Shown: positions 1,709 through 61,489 of the stretch, piece after piece
How positions within the stretch are numbered: position 1 is the stretch's first letter
Layout of the letters: every line of letters starts with the position of its first letter
Assembly (NCBI GenBank): GCA_029938605.1
Contig: JAOZUO010000003.1
Span: 26,592-90,591 of the forward strand
DNA from: Deltaproteobacteria bacterium
Lineage (GTDB): Bacteria; Myxococcota_A; Polyangia; HGW-17; JAJRWW01
DNA length: 64,000 nucleotides
Direction: 5' to 3'
The notes under the pieces: generated by a model
What the model was told of the DNA's origin: nothing
The model's input: only the letters and a program-made list of their open reading frames with translations
Databases searched by the model: none
Program-made: the position numbers and the translations under genes

Positions 1709-1954
1709 CTACAGATCCTGCGCGTGCAGGCCCTGCTCACGGATGAAGTCGTTGAGCTTGATGGGGACGTTCTCGTGGAAGCGGACCTTGTCCTTGGCGA
1801 TCTCGCGCAGGGCGGTGACCGCGGGCTTGTTGCTGCACTTCACCAGGGGCTCGAAGCCCTTCTGGAGCTGGCGAGCGCGCATGGCCCCTAAGACCACCAG
1901 CGCGAAGCGGTTGGGTTGTTGCTCGAGACAATCTTCTACGGTTACTCTGGCCAC
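1709..1954 (-). CDS. rpoZ: DNA-directed RNA polymerase subunit omega
   Basis: ARVTVEDCLEQQPNRFALVVLGAMRARQL matches the conserved RpoZ N-terminus. The track ORF extends to 1987 via a TTG, but the GTG at 1954 gives the canonical M-ARVTVEDC start. Confidence 0.8.
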   Translation of the reverse strand: MARVTVEDCLEQQPNRFALVVLGAMRARQLQKGFEPLVKCSNKPAVTALREIAKDKVRFHENVPIKLNDFIREQGLHAQDL

Positions 1955-2018
1955 GTTTCGCCTCCAAGACAGTGCAGTCGAGCACAAGTAGCCCCGACCC
2001 CCTGTTTTGTCAAGGAGT

Positions 2019-2178
2019 TAGGGTCCGCCTCAAAATAACTCGATCGCTCAGGACGCCGCTGCATCCCGGCTCGCTTCGTTTCTTCTCGTTGCATATCAAT
2101 AAGTATGCGCCTCGTCGTGCCTCGCGAGCCGGGCGCATCGACGCCCTGATTCGAGGACTTATTTTGAGACGGACCCTT
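2019..2178. repeat. ~160-bp imperfect palindromic intergenic element (family C/D), lying between the mscS 3' end and the rpoZ 5' end
   Basis: The left arm agggtccgcctcaaaataact... is nearly the reverse complement of the right arm ...agtcctcgaatcaggg...gagacggaccct. The central 74-nt core gcgcccggctcgcgaggcacgacgaggcgcatacttattgatatgcaacgagaag is identical, in inverted orientation, to the core at 34921-34995. Confidence 0.7.
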
Positions 2179-2179
2179 A

Positions 2180-3487
2180 TCACCCTGCGCCCCGGCGGTC
2201 AGCCTCGTCCAGGGACTTCCCGGCGTTCTGATCCTCGGAGTCCTTCCGCCGCTCCTGGAGCATGGCGGCGCACCGCTCATTAAACCGCATGCGCTCGTCG
2301 TCGTCGTTTTGCCGCATGTACACCGCGTGGGATGGGAAAGCAAACTCCACGCCGATCTCGGAGAGGGTCTGCATGAGCCGCAGGTTCAGCGACTCGCGCA
2401 CGGCCAGGAACTCCGCCCAGACGGTGGTCTTGGAAAAGCAGTAGATCATGATCTCCAGGGCGGAGTCGGCGAAGTCCGTGAAGTACACCAGCCAGAAGTC
2501 CTGGCGGATCTCCTCGTGGTTCCGCAGCACGTCCCGGACCCGGGCCAGGGCCTCGCGCATCTGATCCGGCGTGGTCTCGTAGGTCACCCCGATGCGGAAG
2601 GAGATCCGTCGCTTGAACATGCGCGAAAAGTTCTCGATGGCCGATCTGGCGAGCGTATCGTTGGGCACCAACACCAGGGAGTTGCCAAAGGTACGCACCT
2701 TGGTGGATCGGAATCCGATGTCCTCCACGGTGCCCTCCACGTCCTTGGTCTTGATCCAGTCGCCGATGTCGAAGGGGTAGTCCCCGACGATGGTGATGGT
2801 CCCGAAGACATTGGCGAGAGTGTCCTTAGCGGCGAGGGCCACGGCGAGACCGCCGATGCCCAGACCGGCGAGGATGCCGGCGATCTGCACGCCCGACTCC
2901 TGCAGCACCATGAGGCCGGCGACGATCACGATGGCCACCCGCATGACGCGATCCACGAAGGGCACCAGCCGATCGTCGAGCGGGGACTTGGTCTTGGCGG
3001 TCAGCTTCGTGAGAAAGTGCGTGCCGAGGCCCACCGAGCGGGTCAGGGCCCAGGCGCCAATGACGATGAGGGCCACCACCAGCCCCTTGTTGCTAATGGC
3101 GTCGTAGTTTGTGGGGTGGCGCGGGAGCTTGAGGATCGCAAGGGCCGCGTAAATGTTCAACACCTGGAGCACAGCGCCGATGGGGGGCCTAACGGCCTCG
3201 AAGAGCTTGTCGTCCCACTCGGCGTCGGTGCGCTTGGACATCCGGGCTAAAAACCCCATGAGGATGCCCAGGATGTACTTTCGGGCCAGGTAGATCATCA
3301 CCAGCACCCCAAAGGCCGCGGCGATACGCCAGGCGTCAAACCCCACAAACTGCTGTGTGATCATAAACTCGTGCACAGTGTCCCAGATCGATCTCCAGTC
3401 CATATCCGCTCTCCCAACTGGGCAAACGCCCCAACTCCTGGGCCGCGCACAGTGGTCCCACCCTAACGGGGCGCAATGAAATTGCAA
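2180..3487 (-). CDS. mechanosensitive ion channel protein, MscS family
   Basis: N-terminal TM helices followed by the conserved MscS beta-domain (ITIVGDYPFDIGDWIKTKDVEGTVEDIGFRSTKVRTFGNSLVLVPNDTLARSAIENFS) and a C-terminal extension. Confidence 0.8.
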   Translation of the reverse strand: MQFHCAPLGWDHCARPRSWGVCPVGRADMDWRSIWDTVHEFMITQQFVGFDAWRIAAAFGVLVMIYLARKYILGILMGFLARMSKRTDAEWDDKLFEAVRPPIGAVLQVLNIYAALAILKLPRHPTNYDAISNKGLVVALIVIGAWALTRSVGLGTHFLTKLTAKTKSPLDDRLVPFVDRVMRVAIVIVAGLMVLQESGVQIAGILAGLGIGGLAVALAAKDTLANVFGTITIVGDYPFDIGDWIKTKDVEGTVEDIGFRSTKVRTFGNSLVLVPNDTLARSAIENFSRMFKRRISFRIGVTYETTPDQMREALARVRDVLRNHEEIRQDFWLVYFTDFADSALEIMIYCFSKTTVWAEFLAVRESLNLRLMQTLSEIGVEFAFPSHAVYMRQNDDDERMRFNERCAAMLQERRKDSEDQNAGKSLDEADRRGAG

Positions 3488-4656: not shown

Positions 4657-5148
4657 ATGTACAGACTGTGCTCTCTGATGTTTCTGCTCGCTGGGCCGGG
4701 CGATGCTTCGCCGCTTCCCTCGGCGGAGCTGCCGAGCTACGGAGGGTTACTTCTAAAAACCATTCTGGCGCTGGTGATCGTCATCGGGCTGGCCTACGCG
4801 CTGCTGCGCTGGGGGCTCAAACGACTGATGCCCGGGCACGCGTCCGGTGGTGGCGAGATCAGCATTCTGGATCGGCAGCCCTTGGACAGCCGCCGCCAGG
4901 TGGTGCTGGTCAAAGCCTACGGGCGTTACCTGCTGCTGGGCGTGGGGGACGGATCGGTCACGCTCCTGACAGAGCTGGAGGCCGAAGCGGTGGCCGAGGC
5001 CGAGCGACGACGGGCGGCCCATCCCCCGAAGCGCTTCGCCGACGTGCTGCGCTCGGCCCTGGGGCGTAACAAACCTCCCCCCGAGCCCATCACCCCCAGC
5101 GACCACAGCGATGATCGCCAGGCTGACAAGGACCGGCGCGATGAATAG
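4657..5148 (+). CDS. fliO: flagellar-type export apparatus protein, FliO-like
   Basis: Single TM helix (ILALVIVIGLAYALL) followed by the FliO-like motif EISILDRQPLDSRRQVVLVKAYGRYLLLGVGDGSVTLLTEL. Sits immediately upstream of fliPQR. Confidence 0.55.
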   Translation: MYRLCSLMFLLAGPGDASPLPSAELPSYGGLLLKTILALVIVIGLAYALLRWGLKRLMPGHASGGGEISILDRQPLDSRRQVVLVKAYGRYLLLGVGDGSVTLLTELEAEAVAEAERRRAAHPPKRFADVLRSALGRNKPPPEPITPSDHSDDRQADKDRRDE

Positions 5149-5306
5149 GGTCCGACCAGGAATAGGCCGGTCAGCTCAGGTCGTCGAGGCGCCCCGGTGG
5201 CAAGGACCAAGGAGCGAGGAAATCTCCATGATTCCGAGTGACGAGGGACGCAGTCAGCGGGGATGGATCGGCGGGCTGAGCGATCTGCCTATTGCTGGTC
5301 GGACCC
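5145..5306. repeat. ~160-bp imperfect palindromic element with 16-bp terminal inverted repeats (family A/B), between fliO and fliP
   Basis: The 5' end gggtccgaccaggaat is the reverse complement of the 3' end att(g)ctggtcggaccc. It is ~88% identical to 10900-11062. It contains ggagcgagga-N7-ATG (5211-5230) in frame with fliP. Confidence 0.75.
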
Positions 5307-5311
5307 ATAGA

Positions 5312-6037
5312 GTGCTCTCCCTGGGGCTACTCCTACCTCTGCCCGCCCTGGCCCCTTCCGGAGATCGGCTGCTGGACAGCCCGCTGCTGGCCGTACTCGT
5401 CGTGGCCGCGCTGTCGCTGTTGGGCTTCGCCGTGGTGATGCTCACCAGCTTCGTGAAGGTGGCGGTGGTGCTGTCGGTGTTGCGCTCGGCCATGGGCACA
5501 CCCCAGGTGCCGCCCACCCTGGTGATCACCGGCTTGGCCTTCGTGATCGCGGCCTACGTCATGGCGCCGGTGGTTCGGCAGACCGTGCGTATTGTAGAGC
5601 CCGAGGTGGAGCAGCTCAAGGCTGGGGGCGGCTCCACCGCCGAGCAGGTGCAGCGCTACGCGGCGGCGGGAAAAAAGGCCGCTGGACCCATGCGCGGCTT
5701 CCTCAAAAAACACGCCCATTCCCGGGACCGGGCCTCCTTCCTGGCCATGGCCCGGCGCCTGCACGAGCCCCAGGACCGGACGAAGATCCACAGCGACGAC
5801 TTCCTGGTGCTGGTGCCGGCCTTTCTGACCAGCGAGCTGAAGGAGGCCTTCATCATCGGATTCTTTTTGTTCGTGCCGTTTCTGGTGATCGACCTGGTGG
5901 TGGGGAACATCCTGCTGGCCCTGGGCATGCACATGCTGTCGCCCACGACCATCTCCCTGCCCTTCAAGTTCCTGCTCTTCGTGTTGGTGGACGGGTGGCA
6001 CCTGCTGACCCGGGGCCTCATCGCAGGATACCTATAG
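5312..6037 (+). CDS. fliP: type III secretion / flagellar export gate protein FliP (SctR)
   Basis: The FliP family signature TSFVKVAVVLSVLRSAMGTPQVPPTLVITGLAFVIAAYVMAPV and four TM helices. Start taken at GTG 5312; an in-frame ATG at 5228 inside the upstream repeat is an alternative. Confidence 0.85.
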   Translation: MLSLGLLLPLPALAPSGDRLLDSPLLAVLVVAALSLLGFAVVMLTSFVKVAVVLSVLRSAMGTPQVPPTLVITGLAFVIAAYVMAPVVRQTVRIVEPEVEQLKAGGGSTAEQVQRYAAAGKKAAGPMRGFLKKHAHSRDRASFLAMARRLHEPQDRTKIHSDDFLVLVPAFLTSELKEAFIIGFFLFVPFLVIDLVVGNILLALGMHMLSPTTISLPFKFLLFVLVDGWHLLTRGLIAGYL

Positions 6038-7213: not shown

Positions 7214-9460
7214 ATGGGAAAATGGGAAAAGCTCGCGGATGACATCGAAGACGAAGAGGCGCATACCAAGGTGCCCGAGTTCGAAGACTCAGTGGTGGAC
7301 GTGGTGGATCCAGCAGACGTCACCATGCCGCCAGAGATCCACGGCTGTCAGGTGATCGAGCGGCGCCATCCGGGCGGACAGTCGGAAGTGTTCTACTGCC
7401 GGCCTGACGGCGTGGTCTACTCCGAAGTCCAGGCCACCGAGCTCATGAATGCTTTCCGGGCCGGTGCGGCGGCTGGCGGCCCGCCAGCGGTTAGCGGCCC
7501 GGCGGCCGACATGGTCATCGACACCCTCGGCTCCGGAGAGGACGTGCCCGCGCAGCTCCGAGGCGCGAAGCTGGTGGACCGGGGGGGGAGCTTCTTTTTC
7601 ATCACGGTCGATGGCGGGGAGCTGCCCAAGGAGATAGGCGACAGCCTCTTTGAGGCCTTCGAATCCCCCGAGGTCACCAACCCGGGACTGGAGGTCAAGG
7701 CCGCCGACCTGCCTCAGGAATCCATGCCGGCGCCTCTGCCCACCGAAACGGTCATCGACACCCTGGGCGACGGTCCGGACGTACCTCCGGCGCTCCGCGG
7801 CGCGAACCTGGTGGAGCGGGACGGTAGCTTCTTTTTCATAACACCGGACCAGGAGGCCATCCCCAAGGAGATCGGCGACGATCTGTTCGACGCCTGGGAT
7901 GCGCCGGAAGAGGGGGAGGCCGTCCCCCAGGAACAACCAGCCGCGCCAACGCCGGAGGCTGAGGTACAAGCGCCTGAACCCCAGGCTCAAGAGCCGGAGC
8001 CGGAGCCGGAGCCAGAGCCGGAGCCGGAGCCGGAACCTGAACCCGCACCAGCGCCAGAGTCGGAGGCAGAGGTTCAAGAGCCAGCACCAGCACCAGCGCC
8101 AGAGGCGGAAGCGGAGCCAGAGCCAGAGCCAGAGCCGGAGCCGGAACCAGAGCCGGAGCCGGAGCCGGAACCAGAGCCGGAGCCGGAGCCGGAGCCGGAA
8201 TCAGAACCAGAACCAGAACCAGAACCAGAGGCGGAAGCGGAGCCAGAAGCGGAAGCGGAAGCGGAAGCGGAAGCAAGCAGCCCTGGACCGGAGGAGGAGA
8301 TCCTGGAGTTCCTCGGCACCGGGGAAGAGGTCCCGCCGAGGCTTCGAGGCGGCCGCATGGTCAAACGGGTAGACGGCTTCTATTACGTGACAGCGAACAA
8401 CGAAGTCCTCCCGGCCGATATCGGCGAGGACCTCATTGAGGCCTGGAACTCCGAGGCGGAAGCGGAACCTCCCCCGGCCGACGACCGGGAACCCAACCCC
8501 GTGAACAAACCCTTCGGCTACGGCGACTACGGACCGGTCACCGTCCCGAACTACGTCCTGCCCGAGACCATCGACGTACCCCAGTCAGCCGCTCCAACGG
8601 GGCCGAGCGCCGCGCCCACCGCCGACGAGCCCACCGCCGACGAGCCTACCGCCGACGAACCCACCGCCGACGAGCCCACCGCCGACGAACCCACCGCCGA
8701 CGAGCCCATCGTCGACGAACCCAAAGTCGAGGCAACCTCCGCTCCAGTCACCGAGAAGCTGGAGGCCGGGAGTCTGGAAGATCGGCTCAGACAAGCCGTG
8801 ACCACCGTCCGACGGGAGGCGACCACGGGGGCCTTCAATGTGGCCCAAGCCACCCCCACGCCCGAGCAAATGGAGTCGCTGGTGAACGAGCTCATCGACT
8901 CCGAGCCCACAGACACCATGCTCTCACGCATGGTACTTCGCTCCACCCAACTGACCGAGCAGATCTCCGAAGCCTGGGCGGACGACGAGAGCCGGGGCCG
9001 CCAGGCTCTGCACCGGGACGTAGTCAGCGGCACCTTGCTCGTAGTCGCCGTGAACCCAACCCAACTCAAGGACCTGGATGTGCTCGGCCTGCTCACCCTC
9101 CTTCGCTTTCGCACCACGAAAGGGACCGACCGGGTGGTGGCCGAATTGGCCAAGACCCTACGCTCCAAGCTGGCCGACGATCTCAACCGAGCCATCAAGG
9201 CCTCCTCCCTCACCGACCAGGTCCTGCAGGGCGCACGATCTACGGCCGGCGTCGTCGTCCATGGACAGCTATGGCCCGAGGGGGTCACCCTCCTGGTCGC
9301 CCAGACCATTACCCGCGAGATCTCTCTGACCGTAGGTGAGGTATTGAGCGGCTATCGGGAGAAGGGATACGCCTTCCCGGGCCTTGCGGAAAAGGTCCTC
9401 GAAGCCTATCGTCACTTCGCGACGGATATCGGCGAACGAGTGGCCCGTGCCATCGAGTAG
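7214..9460 (+). CDS. large acidic repeat protein of unknown function
   Basis: 748 aa. It has three tandem ~55-aa repeats ([49 protein letters not shown] and two variants), a long (PE)n/(EPEA)n tract, six PTADE repeats, and a ~230-aa C-terminal region that is not low-complexity. Confidence 0.7.
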
Positions 9461-10899: not shown

Positions 10900-11062
10900 A
10901 ATAGGGTCCGACCAGGAACAAGCAGGTCTGTTCAGGTCGTCGAGGCGCCCCGCTGGCAAGGACAGAGGAGCGAGGAAATCTCATTGATTCCGAGTAACGA
11001 GGGACGCAGTCAGCGGGGATGGATCGGCGGACTGGGCGATCTGGTTATTCCTGGTCGGGCCC
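10900..11062. repeat. second copy of the family A/B imperfect palindromic element, between the two paralogous lipoprotein genes
   Basis: ~88% identical to 5145-5306. TIRs are gggtccgaccaggaac / attcctggtcgggccc. Carries gaggaaatctcaTTG in frame with the downstream gene. Confidence 0.75.
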
Positions 11063-14285: not shown

Positions 14286-15644
14286 CTAGGAACTGGGTTC
14301 GGCGGCGCTCACGGGCACAACGGCCGAAGCAGAGGCAGAAGCCGAGACCGGGGCCAGGGCCGAGGTCGAGCGATACCGATCGCCATGCGAAGCCGCTCCC
14401 AGGTCGCGCGCGCCGGAGGTTGGCCGCCCGGCACGACGCTGGCGCTGATAAAAGTACTGCGCCACGAACGCCATCAACGCCAGGGCGCTGCACACCAGCA
14501 GCACCGGGCGCATGGCCCCCGCGGTGGGCGCGTTGCCAGCAGCCCCGGTGCCGGTGAGCTTGAAGATGAGACTCAGCAGTGGCGCCACCGCGAGCAGCAC
14601 CAACCGCTTGGCCGCGCTCTCGGCCGACAGCACCGTGGCGCGCACGCCGGAATCGGACATCTCCTCGTTGATCAGGGTCTTGACCACCGGCGAGTACACC
14701 CCGGTGACCACGTAGTGACTGACCATGAGCCCCACCACCATGAGCGGCCCAAGCAGGCCCATGAACAGGTAACAGACCACCAGCACGGCCGGCAGCGCCC
14801 ACAGGATGGGCTCCTGCCAACGCTCCCAGTTGGCCCGCCCCAGACGCAGGGCCGCCGCGGCGCCCACGAAGTTGAGCCCAGCGAAGGCCAGCCCGATTCC
14901 CAGGAAATTGAACCCCTGATTCTTGAGCACGGGCTGGAAGAGCGTGCCGCTCAGGATGACCAGGGTAAACAGCAGGGCCGAGTAGACGAGCAACCAACAC
15001 AGGGCCGGGCTCCGGCGAATGGTGTCGAGCCCCTGGCGCATGCCCATCAGCAGCCCCGGCCCCTGGGGTTGGGTGGCCTCACCGCGAACGCGTCCGCGGG
15101 TGGCCGGGAAGAAGAAGGTCACCCCGAAGGCACCGGCACAGGTGACGGCGGTCACCAGGAAAGTGGCGTCAGGACTGCGCACGAAGGCCAGCATTCCCCC
15201 CGCCGCGGCGGCGACGCCAAGGCCCACATACTTCGCCGCGTTGGCGACGGCCTCCCGACGCAGGTACTCTTTGGCCCGGCCGGCGGCTTTGAGTTGATCG
15301 TACAGATAGGCCGAGTCCGCGCCCGAAGTGAGCGTCAAGCCAGCGGCGAAGAGAACCTCGCAAAGAGCCAGCGCGGCGAAACCCGGAGCCACGTAGTACC
15401 CCACCGAGGCCACGGCCATGAGCAAGGAGCCCAGCCGCATGGATCTCCTTCGACCCAGGCGATCCGCCCAGGCACCCGTGGGCACCTCCAGGGTGAAAGC
15501 CGCCGCGGTGAAGATCGTCTGCAACAGCAAGATCTCGGCCATGGACAGGCCCCGGGCCAGGAACACAAAGACGAACACAGCCTTGTGCAGGTGTGCCGTA
15601 CACAGAGCCCGGTAGAGGTTATAAAGCCAGAGAGTCCGCGCCAT
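14286..15644 (-). CDS. MFS transporter
   Basis: ~12 predicted TM helices. MFS motif-like GAWADRLGRRRSM after TM2. Confidence 0.7.
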   Translation of the reverse strand: MARTLWLYNLYRALCTAHLHKAVFVFVFLARGLSMAEILLLQTIFTAAAFTLEVPTGAWADRLGRRRSMRLGSLLMAVASVGYYVAPGFAALALCEVLFAAGLTLTSGADSAYLYDQLKAAGRAKEYLRREAVANAAKYVGLGVAAAAGGMLAFVRSPDATFLVTAVTCAGAFGVTFFFPATRGRVRGEATQPQGPGLLMGMRQGLDTIRRSPALCWLLVYSALLFTLVILSGTLFQPVLKNQGFNFLGIGLAFAGLNFVGAAAALRLGRANWERWQEPILWALPAVLVVCYLFMGLLGPLMVVGLMVSHYVVTGVYSPVVKTLINEEMSDSGVRATVLSAESAAKRLVLLAVAPLLSLIFKLTGTGAAGNAPTAGAMRPVLLVCSALALMAFVAQYFYQRQRRAGRPTSGARDLGAASHGDRYRSTSALAPVSASASASAVVPVSAAEPSS

Positions 15645-15646
15645 GA

Positions 15647-16969
15647 TTACCGCGCCTCCGCTCTAGCTTGGGCCGTCAGGATCACGATGGCCGCCGCGGC
15701 CGTCAGCCGGGCGTTCTCACTGTCCGACGTCAGGTCGGGCGCCATCTTGGCCACCAGGGTTACGTCTCCGTAGGCACGGAGGGCCTGGGCCGCCTCCTCC
15801 CGCAGGGCCGTATGTTCCAAGGCCCGGACCAGGGCCGGGCGCGCCTCGGGAGCACCCAACTTCTGCAGGGCCAAGGCCACCCCCATGTGCATACCCGGCT
15901 CTTTCATGCGCGCCTTGAGCACAGCGAGCCCTATGCGGTCTCCCTTCATACCCAGGGCCACAGCAGCTCGGAGGCGATCGTACGGCGCGCGAGATTTTTG
16001 TAAAACCTCGCGCAGGTAGACCTGCCCCTTCTGATCCCCTAAGCGCACCAGCGCCTCGTAGGAGGTCATACGGTGCTGCCGGAGCCGAGCCAGCTGCCTG
16101 ATAACCCGCATCCCGGCCGAGTCGCCGCAACGAGCCAAGGCAAAGGCCGACGCCCACTGGACCGGTCTGCGGCGGGACACGAGGTCCTTTTTGAGCGCCG
16201 CGTTTCCCTCGGTGTGACCCAGGCGGGCGAGGGCCTCCGCCGCTCTTTGTCGGTTGGGCCACTTGTTGGATGCCAGAGCCTTACGCAAGACATCGAGGGC
16301 CCCGGCGTGCCCTTGCCCAGCGAGCACCCGGGCCGCCGTACGCCAATATCGCCCTGTGGAGTTGGCGAGGAATCCCTCCAAAATGGTCCAGGAACGCTTC
16401 TTGAGGGTCATGAGGCTCGGCCGGCGGCGGGTCCGGGGCGGCTCCACCACCTCCGGTGCCATCTCCCTACCGGCAGGCGCGACGCCGGAATTCACGGGCG
16501 GAGGCGACGAATTCAGGCTGCTCAAAGTGGCCGAAAGCGATGCCCGGTCAGTGGACACCCCGCCCGCAAAAGAGAGGATCAGAACCCCCACGATCACAAG
16601 CACCAGGGAGCACCCTCCCACCATTGTCGACAAGATCACTCGCCGCCGTCGGGACTCCGCCGGCGCGGGTGTCTCCACCGCCAGAGCCGAGACCTGCGGA
16701 GGTCCGGCGGGATCGGCAGCCGCGCCCGGCAGGGCCCGAGGTCGGGCGACGACCGCCGCCGAGGACTCCTCCTCGACGCGCGTACCCGATCCATCGGTGT
16801 CGGGTCGCAGAGCGGAACCAGACGAATCCTGGGACGCGAGCCCCTCGAGCACCCCCTCCCGGCAGGCCTCCGAACAGCACATCACCACACGATCATCCAC
16901 CACGAGGGGCGCATCCCCAAGCAGCGGATGCACCTCGCCGTGGCAACCGGGACAAGAGACCATGGTCAT
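15647..16969 (-). CDS. HEAT-repeat protein with an N-terminal Cys-rich zinc-ribbon-like segment and one TM helix
   Basis: N-terminal CPGCHGE...CCSEAC, then a TM helix (VGGCSLVLVIVGVLILSFAGG). The C-terminal half consists of PBS-lyase/HEAT-like repeats (LARLGHTEG..., LARCGDSAG..., LGMKGDRIG...). Confidence 0.55.
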   Translation of the reverse strand: MTMVSCPGCHGEVHPLLGDAPLVVDDRVVMCCSEACREGVLEGLASQDSSGSALRPDTDGSGTRVEEESSAAVVARPRALPGAAADPAGPPQVSALAVETPAPAESRRRRVILSTMVGGCSLVLVIVGVLILSFAGGVSTDRASLSATLSSLNSSPPPVNSGVAPAGREMAPEVVEPPRTRRRPSLMTLKKRSWTILEGFLANSTGRYWRTAARVLAGQGHAGALDVLRKALASNKWPNRQRAAEALARLGHTEGNAALKKDLVSRRRPVQWASAFALARCGDSAGMRVIRQLARLRQHRMTSYEALVRLGDQKGQVYLREVLQKSRAPYDRLRAAVALGMKGDRIGLAVLKARMKEPGMHMGVALALQKLGAPEARPALVRALEHTALREEAAQALRAYGDVTLVAKMAPDLTSDSENARLTAAAAIVILTAQARAEAR

Positions 16970-18039
16970 GGAAACACCATGGTTCTCTCCCAGCCGTACC
17001 GGGCGATGATCCAGTTGATGTGCTGGACGGCGTAGTTCCGTCGGGAAATGATCATGCGCAGCTCGCGCTCGGACAGCAGCGCCATGGGGGCGCCCGCCTT
17101 CTGGGCCATGCCCTGCTTGAGCCGCTTGTAGGTCAGCGCCTTGAGGTTTCTGAAAAGCTTCCGCGAAAAACGCTGCACGCGCTGCAGGCCCGTGCGTGCG
17201 TTCCTGCCACCCGTCGGTGTCGGGAAGAAGGAGTAGGTGTTGTCCATGAAATACAAGAACTTCGTGTCCGGCGTCCCCATGGTGTTAAACCCGGAGAAAC
17301 GGTCGGGGTTGTTGATCAGGAAATCGTACAGCAGCATGACCGACAGCTGCGCCGTAACCTCGGCGTACCGGGGCGGCAGCCGCTTGTAGGCCTTGAGCCA
17401 CTGGTGCCAGCGCTTGCGCGCTTTCCATCGGTCGATGGGGATGTATCGGATCTTCGGGATCCACCAAGACACCTCGCCCACCAGCCTGCCGCCCTTGCGA
17501 AACCTCGCCTCCTTCTTGAAACGGAAAAAGAACCGCCTCTCCCGGCGATCGATCTTGGCATACAGATCCCGCCAGGTGAGCACGCGCCAGGTGGCCGGCG
17601 GCACCCGACTCAACCCCAGGAGCCGATTGAGGCGGTAGGCGGCGATCTCCTTGCGGGGCACGGTCTGGGGATGGATCTGCTCGGGCTTGAAGGCCGCGCT
17701 GCTCCCGTCCGCCAGACGCAGCCGCAGCGACAGGCTGGATCCACCGCGGTTGAAGGTGATGCGCTTGATGGGCTGCCTTTGCATCCGCCGAAGCAGCACG
17801 TCGTCCGAGATCCCATTCCAGTAGCCCGGACGATCCCGTCGTAGGGTCTCACTGGGGATCTCGGCCACGGACGGCAGGGGCTTTTGGTAGAGCGCAGCCA
17901 GGAACACCTCCCGCTCCGTCGCGCGGGATCCAGCCGGTGCGGATCGGGCCCAGGACACTGTGGACGCCAAAATACCGAACGGAAGACAGAGGACAACCGC
18001 TGCAAGCACACGAAGCATTTGGCGTTTTCTTCTCATCAA
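16966..18039 (-). CDS. secreted protein with a Fam20/four-jointed-like (secretory kinase-like) domain
   Basis: Signal peptide. DFLINNPDRF and MDNTYSF resemble the Fam20C catalytic segment (DxLIxNxDRH ... DN). Lys/Arg-rich. Confidence 0.4.
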   Translation of the reverse strand: MMRRKRQMLRVLAAVVLCLPFGILASTVSWARSAPAGSRATEREVFLAALYQKPLPSVAEIPSETLRRDRPGYWNGISDDVLLRRMQRQPIKRITFNRGGSSLSLRLRLADGSSAAFKPEQIHPQTVPRKEIAAYRLNRLLGLSRVPPATWRVLTWRDLYAKIDRRERRFFFRFKKEARFRKGGRLVGEVSWWIPKIRYIPIDRWKARKRWHQWLKAYKRLPPRYAEVTAQLSVMLLYDFLINNPDRFSGFNTMGTPDTKFLYFMDNTYSFFPTPTGGRNARTGLQRVQRFSRKLFRNLKALTYKRLKQGMAQKAGAPMALLSERELRMIISRRNYAVQHINWIIARYGWERTMVFP

Positions 18040-18325
18040 AACGTCACCATCTTACCATCGATCGTTTGCCATTCGATCCGAGATCCCGTCGCGGCGGATC
18101 CGCTGTCTAGCTGGATCTCAAACAACCTGTGCCCACATTACCACACACTGGCATACATGTCCTACTTTTCGTGCATATTCCCCGGCTTCGTCTCCGACGG
18201 GGCCGGATCATCGGGGAGATCTTCCATAAATTTCGCTCCTCCATCTACTGTGCCTCTACCCAGATTACCCGCTGGTCCGCGGCGATGTTCCCATCCGGAG
18301 TGGAATCCGGACTTGCCGGACTTGA

Positions 18326-19420
18326 ATGGATTATATGGTAGAGTCGTCGAAGCCAACGGGAGAATCCATGTACCCCAGACCTGCACTACGCCAACCGCCG
18401 TTGCTCGTTTTCCTGCTGGTGATCCTGGTGACCACGGCGAGCTGCAACCTGACCCGCTACGCCATTCGGAAAAGCGGACCGGTCCTGGGAAATACCGTGG
18501 CGGTGCTCCAGTCCTATAAGGATCCGGAGATGGCCCGCCAGGCCACGCCGGCCCTGCTCGTGGTGCTCGAGGGGTTGCTCGCCTCGGACCCTGAGAATGC
18601 CACGTTGCTCCGGTTGCTCTGCCGAGGCCTCTATGAATACACCTTCGGTTTTCTGCAGTCCGACTACGAGCGGCTGCGAGAAAGCGATCCTGAGGGCGCC
18701 GAACGCATGCGGCGCCGGGCCCGCGGACAGTACGTAAAGGTGTACGAGCTGGGGCTGCGCCTGCTACGAACCCACGGCGTTCGATTCACCCTCCAAAAGA
18801 CGAAGAAGGAGGAGCTGACGCGGCAGATCGCCGGGCTGGACAAGCGGGCGGTCCCGGCGCTGACCTGGACCGCACTGGGCGCCGGCAGCGCGCTGCTGCT
18901 AGGCATCGATCAGCCCTGGTTGCTGCAGATGATCGGTAAGATCCCGCTGCTGCTCGAGCGCGCCGTGGCCCTGGATCCGAGCTACGCCAACGGTCTCCCC
19001 GTGGGCGGTCTCGCCCTATACTATGGGAGGGATTTGATGACGGGTGGGAGCGCCATCAAATCCCAGCGATACTTCCAGCAGGCCATCAGGATCTCGCGCC
19101 GACGCCACCTGCTGTATCTCGTGCTCTACGCCCGCTACTGGGCGTGGCAGTTCCAGAGCGTCGAGGTGGAACGGGTGGGGCGCGGCCCGTCCGCTCGCAA
19201 GGTCCCCCTTCGCCCCAAAAACAAGCGCGCACTCTTCGTTGCGCTCCTAGAGGAGGTGCTCCGCTTCCGGCTGGAGGACGCGCCCGAATTGCGGCTCTCG
19301 AACACCCTCGCCAAGCACATGGCCAAGCAGCTTATGCGGCGTAAGGACGATTTCCTCGGAATCCAAAGCCCACGAAGCCCACGAAGCCCGCACCACGCGG
19401 CACGCGGAGACCGACCATGA
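18326..19420 (+). CDS. TatT-like TPR lipoprotein (TRAP-transporter-associated)
   Basis: Lipoprotein signal (LLVFLLVILVTTASC) and an all-helical TPR-like fold. Overlaps (ATGA) the downstream DctP-family gene. Confidence 0.55.
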   Translation: MDYMVESSKPTGESMYPRPALRQPPLLVFLLVILVTTASCNLTRYAIRKSGPVLGNTVAVLQSYKDPEMARQATPALLVVLEGLLASDPENATLLRLLCRGLYEYTFGFLQSDYERLRESDPEGAERMRRRARGQYVKVYELGLRLLRTHGVRFTLQKTKKEELTRQIAGLDKRAVPALTWTALGAGSALLLGIDQPWLLQMIGKIPLLLERAVALDPSYANGLPVGGLALYYGRDLMTGGSAIKSQRYFQQAIRISRRRHLLYLVLYARYWAWQFQSVEVERVGRGPSARKVPLRPKNKRALFVALLEEVLRFRLEDAPELRLSNTLAKHMAKQLMRRKDDFLGIQSPRSPRSPHHAARGDRP

Positions 19421-20430
19421 AACGGCTGCTCATAACGATCACCACAGCGACGCTACTTTTCGGCGGCTCCGCCGACGGTCGGGCCGCCCCAGTCACCCTG
19501 AAGATCGCCACGGTAATGCCCCGGGGCGGTCCCTGGGCCAACGCCATGACCCGCATGGCCATCGCGGTAAAAAAGAAAACCAAGGGCAAGGTGGTGTTCA
19601 AGATCTACTTCGGCGCCGTGGCGGGCACCGAGCGGCGCGCCCTCAGCCGCATGAAGGCCAATCAGATCCAGGGACTGGCAGCGGCCTCGGCGGCCCTGTC
19701 CTCCATCGACAGCTCCATCCGGGTGCTGGAGCTGCCCATGCTCTATCGCTCCTACAAAGAGTTCCGCTTCGTGATCAAGTCCATGGAACCCATCTTCAGG
19801 GAGCGCTTCAAAAAACGCGGCTACCGCCTGCTGGCCATGGCGAGCGTGGGCTGGATCTACCTCTACTCCAAAAACCCCATCCGCTCACTTCCTGACATCC
19901 GGCGCTGTAAAATCTGGCGCTGGAAGCACGATCCCATGGTCAATGCGATATTCAAGGTCATGGGCATGCGCACCCAGACGGCACCGGTTACCGACGTGCT
20001 GGCGTCCTTGCAGGCGGGCACCATCGACACCGTCTACGGCATGCCGCACACCACCCAGGCCCTCCAGTGGCACACCAGCGTCAAGTACGCCCTCGACTTC
20101 CGGATCAACATGGCCATCGGATCGGTGCTGATACGCAACGACGCCTTCGCCAAACTCACCGTCGCCCAGCAGAAGGTTGTGCAGGACCAGGGCCGGATCA
20201 TGCAGCGCTTTTTGAACCGAACCTCGGCGTCCATCAACGCCAAGGCCCTACGCTCCATGCAACGCAGCGGCCTGAAGCTACTCAAGCCGTCCGCCTCTTT
20301 CTTCAAGCAGCTCCGGGGCCTCAGGATCAAGCTCCGGAAGAAGCTACGCAACACCATGTACAAGCCGGCCGACCTTAAAAAAATCAAGGCCCTGCTCACC
20401 CTGTGCCGCGTCACCTCCTGCACCATCTGA
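19417..20430 (+). CDS. TRAP transporter solute-binding protein, DctP family
   Basis: Signal peptide plus DctP-family conservation (KIATVMPRGGPWANAM..., WKHDPMVNAIFKVMGMRTQTAPVTDVLASLQAGTIDTV). Confidence 0.7.
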   Translation: MKRLLITITTATLLFGGSADGRAAPVTLKIATVMPRGGPWANAMTRMAIAVKKKTKGKVVFKIYFGAVAGTERRALSRMKANQIQGLAAASAALSSIDSSIRVLELPMLYRSYKEFRFVIKSMEPIFRERFKKRGYRLLAMASVGWIYLYSKNPIRSLPDIRRCKIWRWKHDPMVNAIFKVMGMRTQTAPVTDVLASLQAGTIDTVYGMPHTTQALQWHTSVKYALDFRINMAIGSVLIRNDAFAKLTVAQQKVVQDQGRIMQRFLNRTSASINAKALRSMQRSGLKLLKPSASFFKQLRGLRIKLRKKLRNTMYKPADLKKIKALLTLCRVTSCTI

Positions 20431-21491
20431 GCCGCGCCGCGTACGCGGCCCTGGCAGCAACCCTGGCCACATCCTGGCTTGGCGCCTGCGTGGACAAGCC
20501 CGCGCCAACGGCGCACAGAAGCAAGGTGGTGCTCCCCAACCTCACGGCCTCGGAGCAGGGTCGGGCACCGAAAAGTACCGCGACCCGCCCAGGCCCTACC
20601 ACCTCGGCGGCGTCTCTGAGCCCAGGCCTGGGAGCCGGGCCCGGAACCGTGGACGCGGCCCGGGTACAGCAACGTCTGTCGGGCGCGACCCAATCGATTC
20701 TGGATCTGCGCCCCGCCCGACAGTTCCGTCGTGGCCACCTTCCGGGTGCGCGCAACGACCCGGAGGGGCGCGCGCTCCTGGCGGCGTTGGGCGCGCACCG
20801 ACGCACCGGCGCCCCGGGCAAACCCGGAATTCACCCCGGGGGACCATCCGCCCCGACGGTGGTGCTGGTACACAACGGACGAGATCTTCGCGATCGGGCG
20901 ATTGCGACCCGGGCCTATCTCGTGCTCTACGCCGGTGGTGTCGCCCCCGAGCGCCTGGCCATCCTGCGGGGGGGCTACGCCACCTGGCGCCGACAGCAGC
21001 GGCCTCGGTCCACGGCTGGTCCATCCACCACGGCCACCACGGCCACCACGGCCACCACGGCCACCACGGCGGCTGTCCCGAAAAGCAAGGCCGTGTCCCC
21101 CCGACTACCCCGGTCCCGCCGACAGGTGCTGCTCACCGATCCCGCGGCTCTGGCCGCCGCCCGGAAGCGACCCCGGACCGTGCTGGTACACACTGGCCGA
21201 CGACGCCCAGCGCTCAGTACCCGACGGCCGGCCCCTGCCTGGCTGCGATTCGGCGTGGCACCCCTGGAGCCCGCCCCCGGAGCGTTGCCCCTCACCACCG
21301 CTGAGCTCCGTAAACGCATGGGTCCTGTGCTAACAGCCGGAGACAAGGTTCGACTCATCGCCTTTAGTGAACACGGCCTGTGGGCGAGCCTGGTCTGGTT
21401 CACCCTCAAGAACCGACTCGGTCGTCCCGACCCGCAAAACGCGGTGTACCTGGGTCCCAGCCCGATCCCAAGGAGCATCCCCGCCCGGTGA
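20403..21491 (+). CDS. hypothetical lipoprotein with a possible rhodanese-like segment and a TTATTATTATTA tract
   Basis: Lipoprotein signal (LATSWLGAC). ILDLRPARQFRRGHLPGARN resembles a rhodanese active-site-loop neighbourhood. Low complexity. Confidence 0.4.
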   Translation: MPRHLLHHLSRAAYAALAATLATSWLGACVDKPAPTAHRSKVVLPNLTASEQGRAPKSTATRPGPTTSAASLSPGLGAGPGTVDAARVQQRLSGATQSILDLRPARQFRRGHLPGARNDPEGRALLAALGAHRRTGAPGKPGIHPGGPSAPTVVLVHNGRDLRDRAIATRAYLVLYAGGVAPERLAILRGGYATWRRQQRPRSTAGPSTTATTATTATTATTAAVPKSKAVSPRLPRSRRQVLLTDPAALAAARKRPRTVLVHTGRRRPALSTRRPAPAWLRFGVAPLEPAPGALPLTTAELRKRMGPVLTAGDKVRLIAFSEHGLWASLVWFTLKNRLGRPDPQNAVYLGPSPIPRSIPAR

Positions 21492-22957: not shown

Positions 22958-23565
22958 CGTCTCGCAGCCTCACAGCCTCGCAGCGCACTGCATATCCGCT
23001 GAAGGCCCCACGCGGGGAGACGGATCTCTGAATAAGGTCCAAACCGGCAGAAATCGATGTACTTCGTTTTCAGCAGAGTTTCTCCCTGATAAAGAAAAAA
23101 ATCCGAACACCCAGACGTCAGGGGTCACCCACACCGCCAGCGCTACGCACCAGGCTCGCGGTCAACGGCGTGTCAGTACAGTGAGGGCGGAGGAGGATAA
23201 TCGGACGCCAAAGACGTGCTCCACTGCGGCGAGGCAGACGAACGTCGCCACCGGTGGTTCCGCCGCCGGGCAGACGGCCGGCAGGGACCACCGGAACTTC
23301 CCAACTGGGGCCCACCGGCGCTGAAGCGAACGTCGCCCAATCCGGTACTCAGGGATCCCGTGGGCTGTCCCGTCGTGGATCGGCACCCTTCGCAGCTCAC
23401 AGCGGGCGCATACCTGTCTAGGTGCCCAAACCGCATTCCCGATGGTTGAATCCTTGGGTTTTTCCCCGACTGCGCCAACCGCTGGTGAAAAAACTCATCC
23501 CAGCACCACCGATGTTCTCGCCGCCGCCGACACCTACGTCGACCAGCGCTTAGTGGCCGTTGAAT

Positions 23566-23752
23566 GTTTCACTTTTTCGCCAGATAAATCACCTCTGCCA
23601 AATCTGAAACAGAAAGGGCCCTTTGGTGTTCCACTTTCGGCCCAGATGCGTCATCTCAGCCAAATCTGAAATAGATTTGGCCCTTTGGTGTTCCACTTTC
23701 CCGTCAGATAAATCATCCCAACCGATTCTGAAACAAATCTCCGCTGACAGAG
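23566..23752. repeat. ~62-bp tandem repeat x3, each unit carrying a hairpin (ccaaatctgaaatagatttgg), inside a 1.2-kb non-coding region
   Basis: The units begin gtttcactttttcgccagataaatc..., gttccactttcggcccagatgcgtc... and gttccactttcccgtcagataaatc.... The palindrome in the central unit is perfect. Confidence 0.6.
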
Positions 23753-34812: not shown

Positions 34813-34842
34813 CTTTTTCCCATTATTTTGTTTCGTTTGATG

Positions 34843-34878
34843 ACCCGGTTCAGAAATGAACCGGGTCAACTCGTTTTG
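34843..34878 (+). terminator. probable intrinsic terminator after tRNA-Asp
   Basis: Hairpin acccggttc-agaaat-gaaccgggt followed by caactcgtttt. Confidence 0.45.
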
Positions 34879-34879
34879 G

Positions 34880-35056
34880 GGCTAAGGGCCCGCTCGAATA
34901 TTAGTTGTCCAGTTCAGGGCGTTGAGGCGCCCGGCTCGCGAGGCACGACGAGGCGCATACTTATTGATATGCAACGAGAAGTAACGAAGCGAGCCAGCGA
35001 TGCATCGGCGGCCTGAGTGATCAAGTAATATTCGATCGGGTCCTAAGGGCCCTAAT
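34880..35056. repeat. ~175-bp imperfect palindromic element (family C/D), second copy, downstream of the tRNA pair
   Basis: Shares the 74-nt core (34921-34995) with 2019-2178 in inverted orientation. Its arms end in gggccc-containing termini and are self-complementary at ~65%. Confidence 0.7.
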
Positions 35057-39817: not shown

Positions 39818-40110
39818 TCGCTCGCTTAGCCCCCGCTACGGATGTTCCCCTTGCCGCTCCAGCGGGGCGCTGCAAGAGCGGCTGCGGAGAAATCCTCCAC
39901 GGGGGCGACGCTCGCTGGGTGGTGCTTACACGGAAATTTGCGAGGCATACGATACTCGATGATACGCGCTGTGCCGCTCGCTTAGCCCCCGTTCCGGATG
40001 TTCCCCTTGCCGCTCCAGCGGGGCGCTGCAAGAGCGGCTGCGGAGAAATCCTCCACGGGGGCGACGCTCGCTGGGTGGTGCTTACACGGAAATTTGCGAG
40101 GCATACGATC
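39818..40110. repeat. tandem direct repeat, 2 x 156 bp, in the cooC-acsE intergenic region
   Basis: The unit ctcgcttagcccccg(c/t)t(a/c)cggatgttccccttgccgctccagcggggcgctgcaagagcggctgcggagaaatcctccacgggggcgacgctcgctgggtggtgcttacacggaaatttgcgaggcatacgat recurs at 39821 and 39977. Each unit holds the hairpin gccgctc...gagcggc. Confidence 0.8.
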
Positions 40111-40174
40111 AACGGAGCGGACGCGGAGCGGACTATCCGAGCTCGGTAACGAGGAAAACGGCTCTACATAAGTG

Positions 40175-40262
40175 AGCGGAGCCCGCACGGAGGATTTCAC
40201 GGCAGCCGCTCTCGCAGCGCTTCGCTGGAGCGGCAGAGTGAATCCTTCGTGTGGGCGAAGCG
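40175..40262. repeat. partial third copy of the 156-bp unit, in inverted orientation
   Basis: cggaggatttcacggcagccgctctcgcagcgcttcgctggagcggcagagtgaatcc is the reverse complement of the unit core with a few substitutions. Confidence 0.65.
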
Positions 40263-59185: not shown

Positions 59186-61489
59186 TCAGGAAGCCGTTGG
59201 GTCTGGGCGCTCATCTTCTACGCCCTCGCCATCTGGAGTCAGGTCGTCCACCTCCAGCAGCTCAGTGGTCTCGTTGTGAATGACTGGCTGCAGGGGAGGT
59301 GCAACCGTCTGGTCAGTGCCGGCCGTAAGGTCCGTGTCGATCGCCGGGTCCGAGGGGACCGCCGGATTCGCGCCGGCCATAGAATCCGCGTTGGCCGTCG
59401 GGTCAGTCCCGGCCGTCGGGTCAGTCCCGGCCGTCGAATCCGCGTTGGCCTTCAAGTCCATGCCGGCCTTGTGCTCAGCGCTGGCCTTCAGGTCCATACC
59501 GGCCTTGTGCTCAGCGCTGGCCTTCAGGTCCATGCCGGCCTTGTGCTCAGCGTTGGCAGCAAGGTCCGTATCAGTGGTCGGATCATGGGTGCCCTCCAGG
59601 TTCGCGCCGGCCGCACGGTCCGTGTCGGTCGCAGGGTCCGAGGGGACCTCCGAGTTCGTGCCGGCCTCCGGGTTCGTGCCGGCCTCCGGGTTCGTGCCGG
59701 CTTCCGGGTAGGTCGCGGCCTCGTTCTCGAGGTCGCCCACTTCGAGCAGCGCCGTGGCATCGTCCGACAGAGACGGCTGAGGCGGCTGAGACGGTAGACC
59801 GGAACCGGAGTCTTCGATCTGAGCCGTGGGGAGCTCATGGAAGCTCACGGGCGACAAGGGCGTGTCGGAGTTGGACTTGCCCTCTAGATCCGCCAGGTCC
59901 GGGTCCGCTGGGTCCAGCCCGGGATCCAGCCCGGCGTCCGGGGCAGCCACCAACGGCATCTCCGCCGTATCCGGGGCCACCGGTCGCTGCCGCCGGGCCA
60001 CACGATCGGCAGACTGCTGTATGGCTTCCCGGTTTGCCTCCAGGTCCAGAATGACGGTGTTGGCCGTGTGCAGACCGACACCGCTCGGTCCCGGAGCCGG
60101 AGCCGGCCCCGGACCCGGGGTCGGGGGCAATGTGGGCTCAGTGGCAGGGGATTGAACGTCAGGCTGAGCCTTGGCCTGAGCCTCGGGTTCTGCCTCGGGT
60201 TGCGCCGAGACCCGGGCCACCTCGCCAAAGCCATCGCCCTTGCTCCACAGCACCTCCGACACAGGTTGCAACACCTCGGGATTGGTGGATTCGAGCCGCC
60301 GGATCCCGCTGTTGTCGAGGATCACCGTGGGCTCGGCCGACATTGCCGGGTCGTGCACCCGAGAGCCTCCACCGTCGCCCACCTCCACCTCGCCGTCCCG
60401 CGGGGGCTGCATGAACTCGCCCTCCTCCGCTCCGGCAGGAATGGGCGAGAACTTGGAGAAGTCAGCATCCGGACCCAGGGCATCGGCGATGAGATTCGTG
60501 CCGATCTTGGTGCTGTCGGCGCTGTCGACCACAAACTCTTCGAGGGCCCGCAACTCCTTTTCGATGTCTTCGGCGAAGAGCTGCCGCACAAACCGTCCCA
60601 GGTGAGACCGGGTGAGATCCGGCGCGTGTACCACCAGGAAGTTGTGCAGGGCGTTGGCGAAGTCCTCGGCGGTCTGGTAGCGATCCGACGGCTTGCGGCT
60701 CATGGCCGTGTCCGCGATGGCCGCCAGGGCCGGCGGGATCATGGGATTGCGCTCTCGCACGGGGGTGTAGCGCGTCTCCCGCACCAGCACCAGCAGCTCC
60801 ATCTCGTTGGGCGCCAGGAAGGGCGGCACCCGGGTCAACAGCTCGTAGAGCACCGACCCCCCGGAGAAGATGTCCGTGCGGGGATCCAGCTTGCGCCCCA
60901 TGGCCTGCTCCGGGCTCATGTACTTGACCTTGCCCTTGATCACCCCGGAGCGGGTCTGCACGGTGGAGAGGGTCGCCTTGGCGATGCCGAAGTCACAGAG
61001 CTTCACCTCGCCGGCGTAGGAGCAGATCACATTGGACGGGCTCACGTCCCGGTGAATGAGATGGAGCGGCCGCCCCTCCCGGTCTTTCTGTATGTGCGCC
61101 TGATGCAGCCCCCGCATGATGTGCATCATGATGAAGGCGCAGATCTCCTGCGGGATCCAGCGACGCTGCGCCCGACAGCGGTCCAAGATCGTTCGGCCGT
61201 CCTTGCCGTCCACGTACTCCATGGCGATGAAATACTCACCGTGGGCGAAGCAAAACTCGTAGACCCGGGCGATGGACTCGTGCTCCATGAGGCTCGTGAT
61301 CTTCGCCTCGTCCACGAGCATCTTGATAAACTCCTCGTCCCGGGCGAGGTGGGACAGGATCCGCTTCACCGCCACCATATGCACCCGCCCCTCCTCGTCG
61401 AAGGTCTTGGCGCGATAGATCTCCGCCATGCCGCCGAAGGCGATCCGATCCAACAGGTGATATCGACCGAGCTGTAGCGCTTTTGCCAT
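59186..61489 (-). CDS. Ser/Thr protein kinase with a ~500-aa disordered repetitive C-terminal region
   Basis: Complete Hanks kinase domain (GGMAEIYRA, AVKRI, HRDVSPSNV, DFG, SPEQ). The C-terminus has SAEHKAGMDLKA x3 and GTNPEA x3. Start at MAKALQLGRY (61489). Confidence 0.8.
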   Translation of the reverse strand: MAKALQLGRYHLLDRIAFGGMAEIYRAKTFDEEGRVHMVAVKRILSHLARDEEFIKMLVDEAKITSLMEHESIARVYEFCFAHGEYFIAMEYVDGKDGRTILDRCRAQRRWIPQEICAFIMMHIMRGLHQAHIQKDREGRPLHLIHRDVSPSNVICSYAGEVKLCDFGIAKATLSTVQTRSGVIKGKVKYMSPEQAMGRKLDPRTDIFSGGSVLYELLTRVPPFLAPNEMELLVLVRETRYTPVRERNPMIPPALAAIADTAMSRKPSDRYQTAEDFANALHNFLVVHAPDLTRSHLGRFVRQLFAEDIEKELRALEEFVVDSADSTKIGTNLIADALGPDADFSKFSPIPAGAEEGEFMQPPRDGEVEVGDGGGSRVHDPAMSAEPTVILDNSGIRRLESTNPEVLQPVSEVLWSKGDGFGEVARVSAQPEAEPEAQAKAQPDVQSPATEPTLPPTPGPGPAPAPGPSGVGLHTANTVILDLEANREAIQQSADRVARRQRPVAPDTAEMPLVAAPDAGLDPGLDPADPDLADLEGKSNSDTPLSPVSFHELPTAQIEDSGSGLPSQPPQPSLSDDATALLEVGDLENEAATYPEAGTNPEAGTNPEAGTNSEVPSDPATDTDRAAGANLEGTHDPTTDTDLAANAEHKAGMDLKASAEHKAGMDLKASAEHKAGMDLKANADSTAGTDPTAGTDPTANADSMAGANPAVPSDPAIDTDLTAGTDQTVAPPLQPVIHNETTELLEVDDLTPDGEGVEDERPDPTAS

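Follow-up and report, generated by a model that had tools for sequence, protein, structure and literature searches.

A candidate family of MITE-like hairpin elements in an uncultured Myxococcota-like bacterium

We analysed a 64,000-nt stretch of DNA (the window) from Deltaproteobacteria bacterium GCA_029938605.1 (contig JAOZUO010000003.1, positions 26,592–90,591, forward strand), in which one long palindrome, copy C, lies between an mscS-family channel gene and rpoZ and a second, copy D, follows the terminator of a tRNA pair. [quoted passage not shown] Small size, terminal inverted repeats, a target-site duplication, dispersed copies and four empty sites are all found in this family. The original prediction, made from the window alone, had described an ERIC-like hairpin repeat; the hairpin repeat stands, but the prediction had not recognised it as mobile DNA, recently inserted and flanked by a duplicated TAA. 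The family has not been described before; it is a MITE by kind, and its likeness to ERIC and bcr1 is confined to architecture. Its uncultured, Myxococcota-like host has a G+C content of 64–68%, and the top match of the window MscS among GTDB genomes, 45% identical, comes from a metagenome-assembled genome of the Myxococcales.

Copies C and D and the wider family

We refined the element boundaries from 16 copies that carry the conserved core (C, D and 14 in the metagenome sample Ga0272441). The covariance model R1 and the pair analysis were built on a 15-copy alignment with 46 modelled pairs, 40 in the arms and 6 in an apical mini-hairpin. After refinement, both elements lay where the original prediction had placed them, with C in the opposite orientation to D. 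Retrieved loci are referred to below by handles such as L028.

2021–2176, minus strand: copy C, a 156-nt palindromic MITE-like element (GGGTCCG...CGGACCC); R1 score 177 bits; site empty in L028 and L029
2177–2179, minus strand: TAA direct repeat flanking C upstream, immediately following the TGA stop of mscS
2018–2020, minus strand: TAA direct repeat flanking C on the downstream side
2068–2149, minus strand: inner arms and core common to C and D, 82 nt at 96% identity, including a 55-nt exact run
2091–2108, minus strand: invariant apical mini-hairpin GCATAC-TTATT-G(A)TATGC, the same in 16 of 16 copies
34886–35043, plus strand: copy D, a 158-nt element; R1 score 161 bits; site empty in L035, L033, L037 and L038
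34883–34885, plus strand: TAA direct repeat flanking D on the left
35044–35046, plus strand: TAA direct repeat on the right of D, followed by GGGCCCTAA, a footprint-like string

C and D do share a centre, as had been proposed, but not an identical one of 74 nt: the longest exact run, which is the string quoted in the original prediction, measures 55 nt. Nor is this centre palindromic throughout; apart from the GCATAC/(G)TATGC stem, which surrounds an AT-rich loop, the core is asymmetric over its remaining ~45 nt. The two copies differ in 31 of 158 aligned columns, only 3 of which fall within columns 42–118. RNA folds were compared with 200 dinucleotide shuffles per copy. C is predicted to fold at −94.3 kcal/mol (z = −10.0) and D at −90.4 kcal/mol (z = −6.8), with 0 of 200 shuffles equally stable in either case. 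Of the 46 modelled pairs, C forms 42 as Watson–Crick and 3 as G:T pairs, and D forms 39 and 5. The arms had been recognized as self-complementary from the outset, but the estimates of ~85% for C and ~65% for D were too low; with 39 Watson–Crick pairs of 46, D reaches ~85%, not 65%. Differences between C and D affect 12 paired positions, 8 of them changed on both sides, and 7 of these 8 stay paired in both copies. As modelled, the C and D palindromes are far beyond chance.

The search with the core that had been suggested, made with its invariant 23-mer GCGCATACTTATTGATATGCAAC, recovered 14 further copies in the JGI metagenome collection, all in Ga0272441, but none among GTDB genomes (one genome per species) and none in IMG/VR. 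The relative represented in Ga0272441 has an ortholog of the D-adjoining gene that is 85% identical in protein, and 0 of its 14 copies lie at sites orthologous to C or D. R1 recovered all 15 copies of the model and found five members in the window: C, D and the elements A, B and E. The known set comprises 16 core-bearing copies, typically 155–158 nt long, and five superfamily members:

5148–5306, plus strand: element A; R1 score 91 bits; shared arms, other core; ATA/ATA repeat; in frame in codon 3 of fliP
10904–11062, plus strand: element B; R1 score 101 bits; shares 89% identity with A; flanked by ATA and TTA; missing from L028
61553–61641, minus strand: element E, an 89-nt short member consisting of arms only; R1 score 41.7 bits; TAA/TAA; between divergent genes
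L014, 8540–8775: variant with another core, 236 nt, a superfamily member by R1
L011, 2357–2536: variant with another core, a superfamily member by R1

What the superfamily has in common is its arms, TCAGGnCGTCGAGGCGCC and GGATGnATCGGCGGnCTGA, while the cores are family-specific. The placement of A and B in one superfamily with C and D, first suggested by an arm motif, was borne out by their R1 scores (91 and 101 bits; 42 bits for E). In L014, two superfamily members (8382–8536 and 8540–8775) stand back to back between convergent genes with a gap of 3 nt; each is sense with respect to the gene nearer to it, and the second has a different core. An extra G/C-rich mini-palindrome, CCCCCCTGnnTCTTGGGGGGG, occurs inside the core in L002 (6900–7098) and L011 (2357–2536) and is duplicated in L002; it may be a second, nested small repeat.

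The element can be divided into zones. Its termini carry a conserved GGGnCCG...CGGnCCC and are true inverted repeats. Next come outer arms of ~20 nt, variable yet mutually complementary, and conserved inner arms in which TCAGGnCGTCGAGGCGCCCGGCTCGC pairs with GCGAGCCGGGATGnATCGGCGGnCTGA. The core of ~50 nt is asymmetric and nearly invariant; it holds the AT-rich mini-hairpin, with four direct CGAGnnGC-like units at 10-nt spacing, two on each side (read from the alignment). Mean pairwise identity is lowest in the outer arms (63%), intermediate in the middle and inner arms (85%) and highest in the core (97%). Across subfamilies, copies with an identical central 77 nt can have outer arms that are only 51–58% identical (for example, L007 compared with L013 or L015); for L007 and L013 the figures are 100% and 58%. 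Arm subfamilies are nevertheless common to the two organisms, the outer arms of C being 85% identical to those of L008 and those of D 77% identical to those of L013, compared with 57% between C and D. The core is 97–100% identical between two organisms whose orthologous proteins are ~85% identical. In the core, C and D, which differ in arm type, both have an A at alignment column 60 (GGCACG in place of GGCGCG), a substitution that 0 of the 14 Ga0272441 copies have. This mosaic of core and arms suggests either a very strong constraint on the core or concerted evolution within a genome, by gene conversion or from a single recent master.

The element is small and, judged by reading the frames and with no formal coding test, non-coding: reading frames through it differ between copies because the arms differ, and no open reading frame is conserved between copies, and no protein-family signal was seen. 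Readings of the core as an IHF site, a promoter or a small open reading frame, checked by eye and by consensus scan, gave no convincing match.

The family resembled nothing in the collections we searched. The Rfam scan proposed earlier gave no relevant family at either threshold: two tRNAs were the only hits in the window at gathering score, and a 12-bit chance match was the only one in the element at E ≤ 10. With blastn, neither C nor D matched PLSDB plasmids or INPHARED phages, and C (word size 11) had no match at E ≤ 0.01 among 20,395 E. coli records from 5,426 complete genomes. The label ERIC-like is fair for the architecture: like ERIC, the element is imperfectly palindromic, has a conserved central part and lies between genes, close to gene ends in regions that would be transcribed. 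By sequence it is not ERIC. ERIC is ~127 bp long, is flanked by TA and is enterobacterial, whereas the present family is ~156 nt long, is flanked by TAA and belongs to another phylum. With bacterial MITEs such as Correia/nemis, Chunjie and Nezha it shares small size, lack of coding, inverted and direct repeats, a dispersed intergenic distribution, presence or absence at a given site and a very stable predicted hairpin, whose folding energy in Chunjie is about −98 to −130 kcal/mol (PMC3184786). It differs from them in its 3-nt TAA duplication (TA in Correia and ERIC, 9 bp in Chunjie), in having no sequence similarity to anything searched and no known parent insertion sequence (IS), and in its reversed conservation. 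The ~155-bp bcr1 of the Bacillus cereus group, in which compensatory base changes keep a double-stranded transcript structure (PMC3184786), is alike in size, mobile-element features and compensatory changes. Compared by description only, bcr1 differs in its 5-bp direct repeats, its two-stem cruciform-like fold and its Gram-positive, low-G+C host.

Empty sites and insertion at TAA

Relatives whose proteins are 80 to >90% identical to those of the window have the same gene order and no elements at the sites of C, D, A and B, and R1 found no family member in any syntenic locus of these relatives. The mscS–rpoZ spacer of L028 is 65 nt long and reads GCGGGG-TAA-CCCCTTGACA, its single TAA being the mscS stop there, whereas the occupied site reads GGGTGA-TAA-(156 nt)-TAA-CTCCTTGACA. 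In the wider comparison, L028 reads ...GCGGGG TAA CCCCTTGACAAAT and the window ...GCAGGGTGA TAA (156 nt) TAA CTCCTTGACAAAA. Because L028 has a single TAA where the window has TAA–element–TAA, C was inserted at the TAA that forms the mscS stop in this relative. C is also absent from the orthologous site in L029. D is absent after the conserved tRNA terminator in L035 (from Ga0272441 itself), L033 and L037, and also in L038, a locus of the same 90%-identity protein cluster, where the gene spacing is shorter and R1 has no match. L028 lacks A and B, and L029 lacks A. On these alignments, C, D, A and B are recent insertions, missing at the same sites of close relatives. The four empty sites, an in-frame insertion into fliP and an insertion onto a stop codon that regenerated the stop make these events recent and datable.

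The elements insert at A/T-rich trinucleotides, mostly TAA, and the trinucleotide then stands on both sides. Flanking trinucleotides are identical at C, D, E and L015 (TAA), at A (ATA) and at L010 (TCA), and are one base apart in most other copies. All copies except A are intergenic, and many begin 1–8 nt from a stop codon; this proximity is frequent because TAA is rare in a genome of such G+C content except at stop codons and gene ends. Directly after D, at 35044–35055, the string TAAGGGCCCTAA consists of TAA, the first and last three bases of an element and TAA. It resembles an excision footprint and is the sole instance in the ~508 kb scanned.

An assembly made independently from short reads of this organism (Logan, SRR21545381) is interrupted at three points, 27 nt inside C from one side, 38 nt short of the opposite end of C and 58 nt inside A, with contig ends inside elements A and C (L001, 1–41; L027, 1–58 and 3027–3056). 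These break points are where the arms become common to many copies, and the family explains why short-read assemblies break there.

Hairpin conservation and competing explanations

Across the 46 pairs and 15 copies, 94.6% of 689 cells were paired, compared with 33–43% in controls in which the partners were slid by 1–3 columns. Both sides had changed in 17 pairs (59 cells), compared with at most 8 pairs and at most 13 cells in the slid controls, and 0 of 500 column shuffles reached any covariation measure. Properly aligned, the arms are thus complementary beyond chance, and the compensation of arm changes within copies, first noticed from C and D, is significant across the 15 copies. Thirteen of the 17 pairs that changed on both sides lie in the outer helix (columns 1–21 with 138–158). 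Ten compensated changes are private to one copy; three of these lie 42–53 nt from the end (42/118 and 53/105 in L010, 46/112 in L008), which is beyond the usual transposase-binding inverted repeat. The apical helix 4 has six pairs, none of which varies, and it is silent on covariation either way. Selection on a hairpin or cruciform, as originally argued, is plausible in view of the compensated changes, but a serious rival, in which both ends co-evolve with a transposase, is only partly excluded.

G:T mispairs (59 cells in 17 columns) outnumber A:C mispairs (10 cells in 8 columns), which suggests that the two strands are not equivalent and that one of them matters. G:T is the main or only state of three column pairs, including 44/116 (15 of 15 copies) and 37/123 (12 of 15); no column pair is mainly A:C. 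Bulges and internal loops are fixed at columns 5, 16, 19, 22–27/133–137 and 39–41/119–121. Most copies fold at −72 to −100 kcal/mol, and in 20 of 21 members the predicted RNA fold of the aligned strand is more stable than that of the complementary strand, usually by 10–30 kcal/mol; at C, D, A and B this more stable strand is the mRNA-sense strand. We checked the genes adjoining the copies against Pfam. Where a single gene end abuts the element, nine elements are in the sense orientation (C, D, L004, L006, L007, L009, L012, A and B) and two are antisense (L010 and L011). Strict co-orientation with genes was ruled out by these two antisense cases, which held after the Pfam check, and only a trend is left.

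We propose that the elements are mobilised in trans by a transposase that would make a 3-nt staggered cut, of the IS5 family (IS427/IS1031-type) or Harbinger-type; a staggered cut is favoured because the C site has one TAA when empty and two when occupied. Harbinger/Tourist elements duplicate a 3-nt TAA/TTA target. The present family resembles these elements and the IS427/IS1031-type members of the IS5 family in its 3-nt duplication, and the link is by target duplication only because no transposase was found near any copy. IS1237, of the IS5 family, duplicates TAA on insertion (PMC2516522), but its ends, GAGGTGGTTTCAG..., are unlike GGGnCCG. From the covariation, copies that proliferate would have to keep the whole hairpin. 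A particular strand would matter because of the conserved G:T wobbles and bulges, and the form in question may be mRNA-sense RNA read through from the upstream gene or single-stranded DNA during transposition. C itself would be a neutral or mildly regulatory passenger, presumably co-transcribed at the mscS 3′ end and supplying neither an rpoZ promoter nor a canonical terminator.

Several observations weigh against this proposal. Arm-motif scans of the ~508 kb revealed no autonomous element or transposase with matching ends, returning only known elements, and a tblastn search of the same sequence with E. coli IS5 InsH, a weak test, gave nothing. The conservation gradient is the reverse of that in a textbook MITE: identity is lowest at the ends (63%) and peaks in the centre (97%). 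Perfect direct repeats flank only 6 of ~20 copies, and one TAA could be the target and the other an end carried by the element, as single-strand transposons have them. Few independent events underlie the G:T excess, in which three columns are fixed, and the orientation bias is modest (7:2 in the family and 9:2 with A and B; two-sided p ~0.07). Copy counts cover the 64-kb window and the retrieved loci (~508 kb), which are only parts of genomes. Another account of the element, which we consider improbable, takes it for a structure-specific mobile hairpin in which the invariant, asymmetric apex is recognised and which moves through a single-stranded DNA or RNA intermediate by means of an enzyme of a kind so far unconnected with such elements; alternatively, the apex could be a domesticated RNA module or protein-binding module whose identity between species is maintained by selection or gene conversion. 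If recognition were structure-specific, the arms would need to pair on one strand only.

Arm covariation might instead reflect both terminal inverted repeats co-evolving with different cognate transposases, one IS per subfamily, in which case no hairpin would be needed. The most variable and best-compensated columns (4–13 and 146–155) do fall in the usual transposase-binding zone, and the discrete arm subfamilies common to two organisms (C with L008, D with L013) fit such an account. Complementarity, however, spans the whole 54-nt arm, and the private compensated changes at 42/118, 46/112 and 53/105 lie far inside it; double-stranded protein-binding sites offer no reason for an excess of G:T over A:C; and at least 6 arm types would call for six transposases, of which the arm-motif scans and the weak InsH search showed none. 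We consider this explanation unlikely. Arm complementarity could also be kept mechanically, without selection, by snap-back synthesis at transposition or by mismatch repair in an extruded hairpin. Compensation is indeed nearly perfect between subfamilies, and most unpaired cells are confined to one copy each, in copies that seem to be decaying, such as L005. Copying or repair would, however, erase the conserved wobbles at 44/116 and 37/123 and the fixed bulges and internal loops, so this idea is largely refuted and we give it almost no weight.

Two further explanations make more of the favoured strand. The element may be a host-useful structured RNA module at transcript 3′ ends, processed by RNase III or RNase E or stabilising the mRNA, as reported for Correia, ERIC and REP, with mobility as only its means of spread; the hairpin and the invariant core would then be kept by selection on the RNA. 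The more stable sense strand, the G:U excess, the 9:2 sense orientation at abutting gene ends and a core nearly identical between organisms with diverged proteins all point this way, and there is precedent in ERIC and Correia transcripts that are processed by RNases and in the RNA-level compensatory changes of bcr1 (PMC3184786, PMC10969869). Against it, relatives lack the element at 4 of 4 sites examined, the settings of the copies vary widely (within fliP, upstream of start codons, past a tRNA terminator, between genes that diverge) and Rfam has no matching family; from sequence comparison we regard such a module as unlikely. A hairpin-recognising HUH/Y1 enzyme could alternatively move the element as single-stranded DNA in the style of REPIN/RAYT or IS200/IS605, with TAA as target and element-borne cleavage site. 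In REPINs the hairpin of a REP doublet is the replicative unit, with a structure proposed to be active in single-stranded DNA or mRNA (PMC3116915), and these hairpins likewise carry compensatory changes on both sides (PMC3116915). Arms that keep structure rather than sequence, one favoured strand and left and right trinucleotides that are often one base apart would suit this route. The empty C site has one TAA and the occupied site two, however, and the termini are true GGGnCCG/CGGnCCC inverted repeats without a GTAG or CGTC tag. REPINs, with their tags, linked RAYT and lack of a target duplication, have conserved ends and a variable spacer; here the ends, GGG/CCC, are variable, the centre is conserved and TAA is duplicated. 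We noticed no Y1 gene adjoining any copy, in the course of an analysis that included no genome-wide search for one, and we find this route very doubtful. The reversed conservation and the strand-specific wobbles make the family a test case for whether a hairpin serves its own mobilisation or a host RNA function, a question shared with ERIC-, bcr1- and REPIN-type repeats. For this uncultured and poorly characterised Myxococcota-like lineage, it also provides a well-behaved superfamily of MITE-like elements.

Gene context and other features of the window

The genes and signals next to C and D are as follows.

2180–3403, minus strand: mscS-family channel gene, 407 aa, TGA stop at 2180–2182; protein P0001 is 100% identical
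1709–1954, minus strand: rpoZ, 81 aa, GTG start, PF01192
1985–2013, minus strand: rpoZ promoter, with −35 TTGACA at 2013–2008, a 17-nt spacer and −10 TACTTG at 1990–1985; outside C
34841–34878, plus strand: intrinsic terminator of the tRNA pair, a 12-bp stem and T-run, kept in relatives and upstream of D

C lies at the mscS stop and upstream of rpoZ, which runs from 1954 to 1709 on the same strand, in agreement with the original prediction; D starts 17 nt 3′ of the tRNA terminator stem. It had further been proposed that C terminates mscS and carries promoter signals for rpoZ. The exact fit of C between the two genes and its very stable predicted hairpin are in line with such a role, but the rest of the evidence speaks against it. 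The rpoZ −35 and −10 boxes, GGAGG and GTG (2013–1952) lie outside C and are conserved in the element-free loci L028 and L029, the mscS–rpoZ spacer of the former being only 65 nt long; C ends 5 nt upstream of the −35 box. This promoter was read by eye, and a strict consensus scan did not detect it. Consensus scans gave no promoter on the gene strand (minus) within C, and for D both strands were negative; the sole match at C is on the opposite strand and has a partial overlap with the variable outer arm. The hairpin is not followed by a T-run in any copy, the right flanks reading TAACTCC, TAAGGGC and similar, and scans flagged no terminator at C or D. Related elements, moreover, sit after an existing terminator (D) and inside a coding region (A). 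A terminator or promoter role for C is therefore highly improbable, and the palindrome calls for annotation as mobile DNA or a repeat rather than as a terminator, a promoter or a small RNA gene.

Elements A and B alter the starts of coding regions. At 5141–5312, the window FliP consists of MNR, 54 residues from element A and its ATA repeat, and VLSLGLLLPLPALAPS, with no stop; the L028 ortholog, which lacks the element, reads MLRLCSLGLLLPLPALAPS. Judged from the reading frame, FliP would either be extended at its N terminus, in front of the hydrophobic leader, or restart at the GTG at 5313–5315. Because the fliO stop overlaps the fliP start (ATGA), translational coupling of the two genes may be affected. 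Element B lies 7 nt upstream of an ATG start and replaces the purine-rich stretch GGGAAAAAGA that precedes this start codon in L028.

The window also holds other repeats. One family comprises two direct 135-nt copies (39819–39953 and 39975–40109, 99% identical) and an inverted partner at 40171–40242 (81%), together spanning 39819–40242. Three tandem 62-nt units with 72–76% identity lie at 23554–23735 and are seemingly non-coding. Long in-frame tandem repeats of 9–18 nt (GAGCCG, CCGACGAGCCCAC and CCACGG types) at 7978–8294, 8593–8742, 59293–59738 and 21013–21082 probably encode low-complexity protein segments. In a relative, L038, positions 14826–21029 carry genes for CO dehydrogenase/acetyl-CoA synthase (CdhC, CdhD, a pterin-binding protein and a Prismane-family protein); because this neighbourhood encodes subunits of that enzyme, its gene content hints at an anaerobic lineage capable of the Wood–Ljungdahl pathway.

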